Shown here: positions 17,601-29,997 of the stretch, in pieces
How positions within the stretch are numbered: position 1 is the first letter of the stretch
Layout of the letters: every line of letters starts with the position of its first letter
DNA from: Candidatus Odinarchaeota archaeon
Lineage (GTDB): Archaea; Asgardarchaeota; Odinarchaeia; Odinarchaeales; Odinarchaeaceae
Direction of reading: 5' to 3'
Assembly: GCA_038826135.1 (NCBI GenBank)
Contig: JAWBON010000008.1
Span: 1 to 29,997 of the forward strand
Length of the DNA stretch: 29,997 bases
Program-made: the position numbers and the translations under genes
Notes under the pieces: generated by a model
Databases searched by the model: none
The model's input: the letters and a program-made list of their open reading frames with translations, nothing else
What the model was told of the DNA's origin: nothing

Positions 17601-17654
17601 AAATCTTTTTACCGTTCTTATTTTTTTAAATTTTTTATGGTGCGCCCGGTGAGA

Positions 17655-17676
17655 CTTTCGAAAAGCAGTGCTTTTT
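17655..17676 (-). other. Non-canonical T-loop (59/60) tRNA intron (22 nt)
   Basis: AAAAAGCACTGCTTTTCGAAAG. It forms a strict BHB: central helix UUCG/CGAA, bulges AA|A and AG|U, inner helix AAAAGC/GCUUUU. Removal restores the T-loop TTCGAAT. Confidence 0.88.
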
Positions 17677-17698
17677 TTCGAACTCACGGCTTCGGCCT

Positions 17699-17714
17699 AT
17701 CTGTGAATGAATCA
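17699..17714 (-). other. Canonical 37/38 tRNA intron (16 nt)
   Basis: TGATTCATTCACAGAT lies between G37 and A38. It forms a relaxed BHB with one C.A mismatch in the central helix. Confidence 0.85.
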
Positions 17715-17858
17715 CCGCAGGGCCGCGCAATATCCTGGCTATGCCACGGGCGCGTTTCAAAACCACTAGTTAACTATCAATAAACATTATTTAACTCTTA
17801 TTTTAGAGTGTTTAAACATTGGAAACGGTTTTAACCAGTTATCGATAAATATAATTTC

Positions 17859-27709: not shown

Positions 27710-28774
27710 ATGTATAAGACTGGTATTGTAATCAGCCATAATTATATGAATCATAATCCTGGGGCAGGTCATCCTGAATCTCCGGATAGGATTAAGGTAA
27801 TCTATGACTCACTTCAACATAGATCTCTTTTAAATAATGTGAATGTTAAATTATATGAACCGTTAATCGCCTTGATTCCTGAGGTTAAACTAATTCACTC
27901 TGAAGAATATATTAACAGGATTAAATCTCTATGCGAATCAGGCGGGGGTCCTATGGACTTAGACACGGTAGCCTCGCCTGATACTTATAAAACAGCTCTT
28001 CTAGCTGTTGGAGGCGGTTTAACCGCTGCTAATAAAGTTTTAGACGGCGAGGTAAAGAACGCTTTTGCGTTTGTTAGGCCGCCGGGTCACCACGCTGGTT
28101 TTGCAAGAGCACGCGGCTTCTGCTTCTTTAACAATATCGCTGTTTTAGCTGAATATTTGAATAAGATTAAACGGTTTAATAGAATCATGATTATCGACTT
28201 AGATGTCCACCACGGTAACGGAACCCAAGAGATCTTTTACTCTTCACCCTACGTGGTGTATTTAAGTCTTCACCAAGACGGTAGAACATTATATCCCGGG
28301 ACTGGTTTTCCATTCGAGACCGGCGTCGCCGAGGGTAAGGGTCATATAATTAACGTTCCCCTCCCACCAGGTACTGGTGATAAAACATATTTATTTGCGT
28401 TAAAGCAGCTTCTTTACCCCTTAACTGATATATTTAAACCTGAGATTCTATTAGTTTCATGGGGGTTTGACACATATTATAAGGATAGTATAGCCGCTTT
28501 CAAGTTAACACCACAAGCTTATACTGAAATAGCTAATGTTATTTTAAACGCTGCCTCCAAGCATAGTGATGATCGTGTAGTAATACTTTTAGAGGGGGGT
28601 TATAACCTCTCATCGCTTGGGAACCTTACTTCCAACGTAGTTGCAGCGCTAGCGGGTATAGATGACGTGTACCGGGAGGCTGGTGTTGAAGAGGATCCTG
28701 ATGTTGAAAAATATGTTAAAAAATTAATCAACGCTGTAAAAGCCGAGCTTAAACCTGTTTGGGGAGAGCTTTAA
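27710..28774 (+). CDS. Histone deacetylase family (AcuC/HDAC class II-like) Zn-dependent deacetylase
   Basis: HPESPDRI, RPPGHHA, GFCFFNN, DLDVHHGNGTQ, GFD, and LEGGY. The catalytic residues are intact, and SD GGTGAT precedes the start. Confidence 0.93.
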   Translation: MYKTGIVISHNYMNHNPGAGHPESPDRIKVIYDSLQHRSLLNNVNVKLYEPLIALIPEVKLIHSEEYINRIKSLCESGGGPMDLDTVASPDTYKTALLAVGGGLTAANKVLDGEVKNAFAFVRPPGHHAGFARARGFCFFNNIAVLAEYLNKIKRFNRIMIIDLDVHHGNGTQEIFYSSPYVVYLSLHQDGRTLYPGTGFPFETGVAEGKGHIINVPLPPGTGDKTYLFALKQLLYPLTDIFKPEILLVSWGFDTYYKDSIAAFKLTPQAYTEIANVILNAASKHSDDRVVILLEGGYNLSSLGNLTSNVVAALAGIDDVYREAGVEEDPDVEKYVKKLINAVKAELKPVWGEL

Positions 28775-28807
28775 TATGGTGGGTCGGGTGGGATTTGAAC
28801 CCACGAA

Positions 28808-28826
28808 TTTGCGAGTAAACCTACTT
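28808..28826 (-). other. Probable non-canonical variable-region tRNA intron (~19 nt, near 45/46)
   Basis: There are 24 nt between G43 and G49 instead of about 5. The insert contains an AGTA/TACT hairpin and a CTCGC that is complementary to GCGAG at the 3' side of the anticodon stem. The exact boundaries are ambiguous by 1-2 nt. Confidence 0.7.
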
Positions 28827-28834
28827 CTCGCGCG

Positions 28835-28851
28835 ATCCGGCTTCTCCAAGA
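28835..28851 (-). other. Canonical 37/38 tRNA intron (17 nt)
   Basis: TCTTGGAGAAGCCGGAT forms a BHB: central helix CUGG/CCGG, bulges GG|U and AU|C, inner helix CUU/AAG. Confidence 0.9.
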
Positions 28852-29014
28852 CCCCAGGCGCGGATCCTAATCCAAGCTAGACCACCGACCCGGCTTCACC
28901 GGTAATTTAGTAGGTGTTAAAGCATTTTATATATGCTTACCTTTTAACTTTATCGGCGTCTAACACGCTGGCTGAAACACGCGTTTCAATAGTATTAAAC
29001 TCTATTTCAAATTA

Positions 29015-29997
29015 TTAAGCGATTTCAGGATTCAACATCTCTGTTAAGAATTTTGCGAACTGTTTATTCTCCATGTAGTTACTTAGAATCTCCTCCTCAA
29101 CTAATATTTTACTGTCTGATTTAAGAGCGGTTCTTATGTGTTTTCCCAGGCTGATTCTTGTGTAGTCGATGTTTTCTAAAAAATCTTTTATATGCTCTTC
29201 ACCTCTTTTGATTAAAACCATCCATCTCCCATCTTCAACATACAGTTTTTTCACGTATTTATTGTTTTCATATTTTTCAAGAAATTTTTTTTCACCATCG
29301 CTTTTCACAGGCGGTCCTAGTTTTTTTTCAAACCCGCTTCTGAACAGTGACTCCAGCTTTAAAATGAATATAACCTCTCTCCTCTCATCTGTCCAAACAC
29401 TTGCAGAATGAATTTTAAAATCGTTTAATTCTAGGAATTTTTTAAACCCGTTTAGCGAACGGTGTAATTGACCCCATAGATTGTCAACGGGGATATTAGG
29501 GGCTTTTGTGAGAATGAAAAGTGTGTTCTTCACTTTCAGTTTCATCCTATCAGGTTTTAGAGGAGTTATCTCTTCAGGGAAAAAGAATTTTTCACTCGGA
29601 TTCTTTAAAAAGTTTTTAACGCTTTTAATAAATTTTTGAAGTGTCTCCCCGCTGACAGGTGAAGCTACATTCCTTTTATGGTCGACCGGGTCTATTACTA
29701 TTAGAGGATCTGTGAACTCTCTAATATTATTTACAGCAACTTCTTCAAGGATTATTGTCTCTTTATCACGCCAGTTCAAGCACTGTTCAAGAAGGTTTAA
29801 GAATGTTTTATAGTGAATTATAAGGAGCTCGCATAAATACCCTGAGAAGCCTTTAGTTTTAATCTCCGCCCCGTATAGTCTCTGGCCTATTAGGAAACAT
29901 TTTAATAACCGGATTTCAGCTATGAGATTTTGATCAATCTTCGAGAGCACATATATTGTATGTAACGGGCTCCTGTCAACAGCGGTTACCTTCTCGC
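29015..29997 (-). CDS. cca: Archaeal class I CCA-adding enzyme (5' end outside the window)
   Basis: The frame is open to the window edge: AVDRSPLHT.Y, EIRLLK.FL...LYGAE...GFSGYLCELLIIHY..F, L.VIDPVD.KRNVAS, and GPP. Confidence 0.93.
   Translation of the reverse strand, partial: EKVTAVDRSPLHTIYVLSKIDQNLIAEIRLLKCFLIGQRLYGAEIKTKGFSGYLCELLIIHYKTFLNLLEQCLNWRDKETIILEEVAVNNIREFTDPLIVIDPVDHKRNVASPVSGETLQKFIKSVKNFLKNPSEKFFFPEEITPLKPDRMKLKVKNTLFILTKAPNIPVDNLWGQLHRSLNGFKKFLELNDFKIHSASVWTDERREVIFILKLESLFRSGFEKKLGPPVKSDGEKKFLEKYENNKYVKKLYVEDGRWMVLIKRGEEHIKDFLENIDYTRISLGKHIRTALKSDSKILVEEEILSNYMENKQFAKFLTEMLNPEIA

Follow-up and report, generated by a model that had tools for sequence, protein, structure and literature searches.

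How would a tRNA be completed when its gene is interrupted both at the canonical intron site and in the variable region, and where would the second interruption be cut? The question is raised by the tRNA-Pro(GGG) gene of an Odinarchaeota archaeon, contained in a stretch of 29,997 nt that was analysed as a whole (the window). An earlier reading of this DNA (the original prediction) had proposed two introns, competing splice motifs, and a probably fixed order of splicing. The gene is very probably functional, with two protein-spliced introns, the second of which lies in a relaxed HBh' motif. The sole unusual point is a conflict of two bases between the geometry of this motif and the size of the variable loop.

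The gene and its intron at 37/38

The tRNA-Pro(GGG) gene lies at 28891..28777 on the minus strand, exactly where it had been placed, as both Rfam and ARAGORN with its intron option report (Table 1). In the alignment to the Rfam tRNA model, the anticodon loop shows a 21-nt gap and the variable region an insertion of the same length. ARAGORN does not call tRNA-Pro(GGG) at default settings; with the intron option it returns Pro(ggg) i(41,17), a 17-nt intron from nt 41. Standard finders thus under-call such genes, ARAGORN missing this one and Rfam scoring it just above threshold. All four stems (acceptor, D, anticodon, and T) are paired, A73 and G37 are in place, and no other Pro gene with a GGG anticodon was found in the genome. 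The TATA-like box upstream is a candidate archaeal promoter, judging by its sequence.

The surroundings are compact. A CCA-adding enzyme gene (PF09249, PF21133) lies directly upstream on the same strand (29015-29997, minus), with its N-terminus beyond the window; 40 of the 42 tRNA genes found, tRNA-Pro(GGG) among them, encode CCA despite the presence of this gene. On the other side, a convergent gene of the histone-deacetylase family (27710-28774, plus) ends 2 nt from the 3' end of the tRNA, so there is no space for a separate terminator.

Table 1. Features of the tRNA-Pro(GGG) locus and of related genes. Positions are those of the window unless a contig of G000 (the window's own genome) is named; nt numbers follow the precursor, ^ marks a cut, and intron and exon limits are predicted.
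Feature	Positions	Strand	Basis or remark
tRNA-Pro(GGG) gene, 115 nt including encoded CCA; introns at 37/38 and in the variable loop	28777..28891	-	Rfam RF00005, 37.1 bits; ARAGORN -i
Encoded CCA	28779-28777	-	direct reading; gene 5' end = 28891
TATA-like AT-rich box ATATATAAAA	28925..28934	-	direct reading; 34 nt upstream of mature 5' end
Exon 1, nt 1-40 (positions 1-37, anticodon GGG, G37)	28852..28891	-	direct reading
Intron 1, nt 41-57, 17 nt, canonical 37/38	28851-28835	-	strict hBHBh'
Exon 2, nt 58-66 (C38, G39-G43, A44, G45, A66)	28826..28834	-	invariant in 7/7 sequences
Exon 2 end in the 19-nt intron reading, nt 65	28827	-	
Variable region, nt 64-87, 24 nt between G43 and G49	28828-28805	-	
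Intron 2, strict register (+1), nt 67-83, 17 nt	28809-28825	-	cuts GA^A and AA^A; loop AGAAUUC
Intron 2, alternative register (0), nt 66-84, 19 nt	28808-28826	-	cuts AG^A and AA^U; loop AGUUC
Intron-2 central helix, 5' strand G41 C42 G43 A44	28828..28831	-	
Intron-2 central helix, 3' strand UCGC, nt 78-81	28811..28814	-	
Intron-2 3' bulge AAA, after the UCGC strand	28808-28810	-	
Exon 3 (variable-loop end, T arm, acceptor 3' strand, A73, CCA), from nt 84 in the strict register	28777..28808	-	direct reading
Exon 3 start in the alternative register, nt 85	28807	-	
Contig coverage of the gene region	X2 28650-28978; X3 28792-28981; X9 28687-28958		DNA contigs, other samples
Predicted splice-junction word, 7-nt loop			GCGCGAGAATTCGTGGG
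Predicted splice-junction word, AGUUC loop			GCGCGAGTTCGTGGG
Predicted splice-junction word, AGAUC loop			GCGCGAGATCGTGGG
tRNA-Pro(UGG)	G000 C5:24247-24377	+	introns at 45/46 and in the T-loop
tRNA-Pro(CGG)	G000 C29:12159-12271	-	introns in the D-loop and T-loop
Variable-loop introns at 45/46			Ala(GGC), Val(UAC), Val(CAC), Pro(UGG)
Variable-loop introns at 46/47			Thr(CGU), Thr(GGU), Thr(UGU)

The 17-nt BHB intron claimed at 37/38 proves to be a strict hBHBh' motif, with every element of the BHB definition (two 3-nt bulges on opposite strands of a 4-bp helix, with flanking helices). In the central helix, C32-G35 (CUGG) pairs with CCGG at all four positions, between the bulges GG^U and AU^C. 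The inner helix has 3 bp (CUU/AAG around GGAG), and the anticodon stem with its five G-C pairs serves as the outer helix. Among seven aligned sequences, 100% of the cells of this motif are paired, and one pair has changed in a compensatory manner (U-A to C-G). Removal of the 17 nt joins CUGGGG to C and restores a standard 7-nt anticodon loop (CUGGGGC).

A low-coverage contig from run X9 (depth 4.4) has G for A on the plus strand at 28823 and 28848. These changes correspond to U69C and U44C in the RNA, and each disrupts one inner-helix pair of an intron; they may be a strain variant or an error.

Conserved pairing in the variable region

The second claim concerned about 19 extra nt between the anticodon and T arms. 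This is borne out by a variable region of 24 nt where 5 are expected; the other class-I tRNAs parsed in the genome have 5 nt in every case. An assembly artefact or a decaying pseudogene might be suspected in a 105-contig draft genome, from a gene that scores only 37 bits with Rfam. However, contigs of three other runs cross the gene without a gap, every stem is intact in seven sequences from two families, and no other GGG-anticodon Pro gene turned up, which makes this explanation extremely unlikely.

The seven aligned sequences comprise the window, three congeners, one metagenome contig, and two genomes of a second family, the class Odinarchaeia being represented by seven genomes in the collection compared. 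In this survey of relatives, which the original prediction had proposed, all six orthologues retain both insertions at the same places. Exon 1 is identical or nearly identical across the six, and exon 3 is invariant among the seven except at U86 (C in G002) and U85 (C in G005). The flanks of the variable region are invariant as well (GCGCG-AGAA ... C-AAA-YYC), while the interior differs in sequence and in length (23, 24, 25, or 34 nt). Both introns thus show, across seven sequences and two families, the BHB hallmark of pairing that is kept while the intron interior drifts. As it is common to two families of Odinarchaeia, the variable-loop intron of tRNA-Pro(GGG) is old.

The extra sequence had been drawn as a GCGAG/CUCGC pairing around an AGUA-GGUU-UACU hairpin. 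Both elements exist, but they share C77 and U78 and cannot both form fully. The choice is rather between two registers of a single bulged stem, slipped against each other. In the strict register (+1), G41 C42 G43 A44 pairs with UCGC, giving four Watson-Crick pairs out of four, and the inner helix is 3 bp (GUA/UAC). In the alternative register (0), C40-G43 (CGCG) faces CGCA, so that three of four positions pair and C40.A is a mismatch, with an inner helix of 4 bp (AGUA/UACU). G41-G43 also form the 3' strand of the anticodon stem. The insertion satisfies the relaxed HBh' definition (central helix 4/4, 3-nt 5' bulge, 3-bp inner helix); it lacks an outer helix closing the 3' site and therefore takes the relaxed form only. 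In the window, the 3' end of intron 1 could also pair with AUUCG over 5 bp to give an outer helix, but this helix is not kept in the congeners and is taken as chance.

A chance origin of the intron-2 motif itself is unlikely, since it is rare in shuffled inserts. A helix with four Watson-Crick pairs plus an inner helix of at least 3 bp occurs in 0.15% of 20,000 insert shuffles, and the register-0 pattern (3/4 helix, 4-bp inner helix, 5-nt loop) in 1%. Conservation also distinguishes the registers: across the seven sequences, 92.9% of the cells of the central helix are paired in register +1 and 67.9% in register 0, where C40 and A82 pair in none of the seven. When the 3' partners are shifted along the alignment by one, two, or three columns, pairing falls from 93% to 12-39%, and RNAalifold recovers the GCGA(G)/(C)UCGC helix unaided. 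All five sequences from the window's family have UCGC as the 3' strand, and those of the second family have UCAC or UUAC; in the latter, the central helix has three of four pairs in register +1 and two of four in register 0. Three pairs of the inner helix have changed on both sides between the families.

The orthologues of the second family (L060:2304-2456 and L061:5835-5986, both on the minus strand) are interrupted a third time, by an intron of about 30 nt in the T-loop, and their 34-nt variable region has a different inner stem (CARA/UUUG). A nested 16-nt intron can be drawn within their insert (central helix GAUG/UGUC versus AACG/UGUU, with one compensatory pair). This candidate was rejected: once it is removed, 18 nt remain that contain no other motif, and a single 27-nt HBh' intron homologous to intron 2 of the window accounts for the same bases.

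Sister genes and the second junction

Acceptor-stem/CCA scanning combined with Rfam yields 42 tRNA genes in the genome. Intron load was counted from gene length and hand parsing; removal of BHB motifs followed by ARAGORN gave many alternative products and was dropped because ARAGORN accepts almost anything. On this basis, excess length amounts to 10 nt or more in 36 of the 42 genes and to 36 nt or more in 21, in keeping with the genome-wide proliferation of introns that had been proposed. The tRNA-Arg(GCG) gene of the window (17638-17753) does have two insertions, as claimed. All three Pro isoacceptors have two introns each, at different places. No copies of intron 1 or intron 2 were found elsewhere in the genome.

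At least seven other tRNA genes of this genome contain variable-loop introns of a single design (Table 1). In each, anticodon-stem positions 40-43 or 41-44 form the central helix and AG^N or GG^N the 5' bulge; predicted cleavage on the 3' side comes two bases past the helix (mostly AA^), and a 5-nt loop results. Predicted splicing of Ala(GGC) and Val(UAC) gives AGGCC and AGGUC, respectively, which are the loops of the intron-free Ala(CGC) and Val(GAC). Together with the conserved pairing, this shared design makes a second, non-canonical protein-spliced intron, as first proposed, the best reading of the extra sequence in tRNA-Pro(GGG). The tRNA-Val(CAC) gene (G000 C42:8027-8148, plus) has two abutting introns at 45/46 that use one shared CCGC strand; its predicted doubly spliced loop, AGUUC, equals the register-0 product of Pro(GGG).

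The insertion might instead be retained, so that the mature tRNA-Pro would have a long variable arm like that of class II tRNAs. ARAGORN accepts the form lacking intron 1 as a 98-nt tRNA-Pro, and the insert of the window contains a 4-bp hairpin. However, class II tRNAs have a self-contained, conserved stem-loop in the variable arm, and this hairpin is not conserved: it is reduced to 2 bp with a 7-nt loop in the three congeners, and a different stem takes its place in the second family. Insert length ranges from 23 to 34 nt among the orthologues, the pairing that is conserved involves the anticodon stem rather than the inside of an arm, and all other Asgard Pro tRNAs seen have 5-nt loops. Moreover, the similarly built Ala and Val inserts must be removed to match their intron-free isoacceptors. 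Retention is therefore very unlikely, and excision of the insert remains the preferred reading.

Where the cuts would fall is less certain. The two junctions originally offered fare differently: AGUUC corresponds to register 0, with only a 3/4 helix and the C40.A mismatch, and no BHB can be drawn for AGAUC. The 7-nt loop AGAAUUC, the product of the only perfect register, was absent from that proposal. A further junction, AAUUC (cuts after nt 63 or 64), was rejected, as it has just a 3/4 helix and no inner helix.

Motif and loop size point in different directions. The perfect registers of the seven sister genes give 5-nt loops, whereas that of Pro(GGG) gives 7 nt, a size seen in no other tRNA examined here; a literature search for variable loops of 6 or 7 nt found no paper. 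The paralogues would have AGAUC (Pro(UGG)) and AGGUC (Pro(CGG)), and five other Asgard Pro tRNAs have 5-nt loops of the form NGRUC. Val(UAC) and Thr(UGU), too, offer slipped 4/4 registers with a 7-nt product, so perfect pairing in such a register is by itself no proof that the enzyme uses it. In seven of seven other variable-loop introns, however, the cut lies two bases beyond the last pair, a rule that points to AA^AUUC in Pro(GGG). From motif and loop comparison, the strict register with its 7-nt loop comes close to an even chance of being the one used; the slipped register with the C40.A mismatch is a serious candidate that falls short of an even chance; and any other junction, including AGAUC, is unlikely. 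Two runs labelled metatranscriptomic gave contigs, a form of data that cannot show splicing, with the unspliced gene or short words shared among tRNAs and no joints.

The junction matters because motif geometry and tRNA architecture differ by two bases, and its position would show which rule EndA obeys. It is tentatively proposed that EndA follows the perfect register and that the mature tRNA-Pro(GGG) of all sampled Odinarchaeia may have the 7-nt loop AGAAYYC. A class-I tRNA would then have two bases more than usual in its variable loop and would have retained them since the two families diverged. If the loop is instead 5 nt, EndA would routinely tolerate a C.A mismatch at the end of the central helix across which it measures the cut, and in the second family that helix would contain two such mismatches.

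Splicing order, related systems, and enzymes

The two motifs were expected to compete for nt 39-43 and thereby to force an order of splicing. They do overlap, sharing nt 41-43, but this is not special to tRNA-Pro: for any intron at 45/46 or 46/47, one strand of the central helix has to come from positions 40-43 or 41-44, so the overlap is inherent to the position and recurs in Ala(GGC), Val(UAC), Val(CAC), Pro(UGG), and the three Thr genes. Under an obligatory order, one intron would leave first and the RNA would refold before the second cut. This would suit a strict intron 1 that uses the full anticodon stem as outer helix, with intron 2 taking G41-G43 (and A44), and it has a counterpart in C. 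merolae, where processing order follows motif stability and in connection with which nested archaeal introns are cited (Soma et al., PMC3728597). However, tRNA-Pro(GGG) is not nested in that sense, as neither motif depends on prior removal of the other intron in order to form. A single structure accommodates both if intron 1 takes the HBh' form and 2 bp of the anticodon stem are kept. In the unspliced RNA, the cloverleaf with motif 1 and the insert hairpin has -35.5 kcal/mol and the structure with both motifs -31.0; after removal of intron 1, the values are -31.3 kcal/mol without motif 2 and -26.8 with it. The conformer with the intron-2 motif is thus about 4.5 kcal/mol less stable than the cloverleaf either way, and this equal penalty indicates that neither motif needs the other intron gone. 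Broad-specificity EndA, moreover, needs no outer helix (PMC3241643, PMC5829648). Given also that every 45/46 or 46/47 intron of the genome shows the same overlap, an obligatory order is doubtful and the forced order originally thought probable is not supported, although a kinetic preference for the more stable motif 1 is plausible. In the minimum-free-energy fold of the entire precursor the 5' half is misfolded, and the structure gives no useful information.

Multi-intron tRNA genes with non-canonical introns are said to have been described in Thermoproteales and other Crenarchaeota by Marck and Grosjean in 2003 and by Sugahara in 2007 and 2008. Those of Crenarchaeota with non-canonical BHB or HBh' introns have been reviewed (PMC4033280, PMC4090602). 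The tRNA-Pro(GGG) gene resembles them in having a canonical and an ectopic intron, both small and of the protein-spliced kind, a relaxed motif devoid of an outer helix, and a host with an (alpha-beta)2-type EndA containing the specific loop. It differs in that its host is an Asgard archaeon (Odinarchaeia), and, unlike the transposed intron families of Thermoproteales, its introns have no copies elsewhere in the genome. Variable-region introns are noted in the introduction of PMC3241643, and those in the variable arm of Aeropyrum pernix tRNA-Lys have been confirmed by cDNA sequencing (Watanabe et al. 2015, PMC4307357). There, too, the intron lies in the variable region of a class-I tRNA, with cut sites set by a BHB-like structure. 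However, predicted and observed borders coincide in A. pernix tRNA-Lys, whereas in Pro(GGG), known from DNA, the best motif and the 5-nt loop differ by 2 nt.

Asgard tRNA genes are heavily interrupted, and their variable-region insertions have been catalogued (Goswami et al. 2026, bioRxiv 10.64898/2026.10.13.758758). Like tRNA-Pro(GGG), the published cases come from Asgard hosts with two EndA paralogues, and they include multiple introns in one gene and insertions in the variable region. The 2026 census is centred on Freyrarchaeaceae and Jordiarchaeaceae, and its main text does not mention Odin. The tRNA genes of Odinarchaeota LCB_4 have been predicted by Kaneta (2018, PMC5829648), the available part of which describes no individual gene. 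tRNA-Pro(GGG) is thus one more multi-intron tRNA gene of a kind known from Crenarchaeota and reported for Asgard archaea, and its two-base conflict may be of some value to students of EndA.

The genome contains the broad-specificity endonuclease and RNA ligase genes expected of a host of BHB introns. Three PF01974 matches represent two EndA genes, as the alpha gene is split over the ends of two contigs. The best solved relative of the catalytic alpha subunit is A. pernix 3P1Z_B, to which it aligns without gaps through the crenarchaeal specific loop; the second gene encodes a 185-aa paralogue lacking the catalytic histidine. The A. pernix enzyme, with the same loop, cuts both non-canonical BHL introns and introns located at non-standard positions (PMC3241643), and broad-specificity EndA cleaves HBh' and BHL motifs without an outer helix (PMC3241643, PMC5829648). 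Asgard archaea are reported to have (alpha-beta)2 EndA with an L1 loop (PMC5829648), and the pair found here agrees with this. The two pieces of the alpha gene, C48:1-420 (minus, L067) and C72:2-274 (plus, L065), share an identical overlap of 42 residues (KLVVYLDL...SPFLVH), which means that the two contigs can probably be joined.

With these components, intron 1 would be excised from its textbook hBHBh' motif at 37/38. For intron 2, the UCGC of its 3' part would pair with G41-A44 to form the 4-bp central helix, with the 3-nt bulge and then the short intron hairpin on the 5' strand, completing an HBh' that lacks an outer helix. Three base pairs of the anticodon stem would have to open transiently for the cut. 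A heterotetramer-type EndA, made up of the alpha subunit with the crenarchaeal specific loop and the beta-like paralogue, would cut both motifs, and RtcB, found in the genome with 494.6 bits, would ligate the exons. The RtcB gene is a single open frame of 995 aa (C16:2586-5357, L068/L069) in which the segments matching Pfam positions 1-50 and 49-426 lie about 1.4 kb apart, which suggests an intein-like insert.
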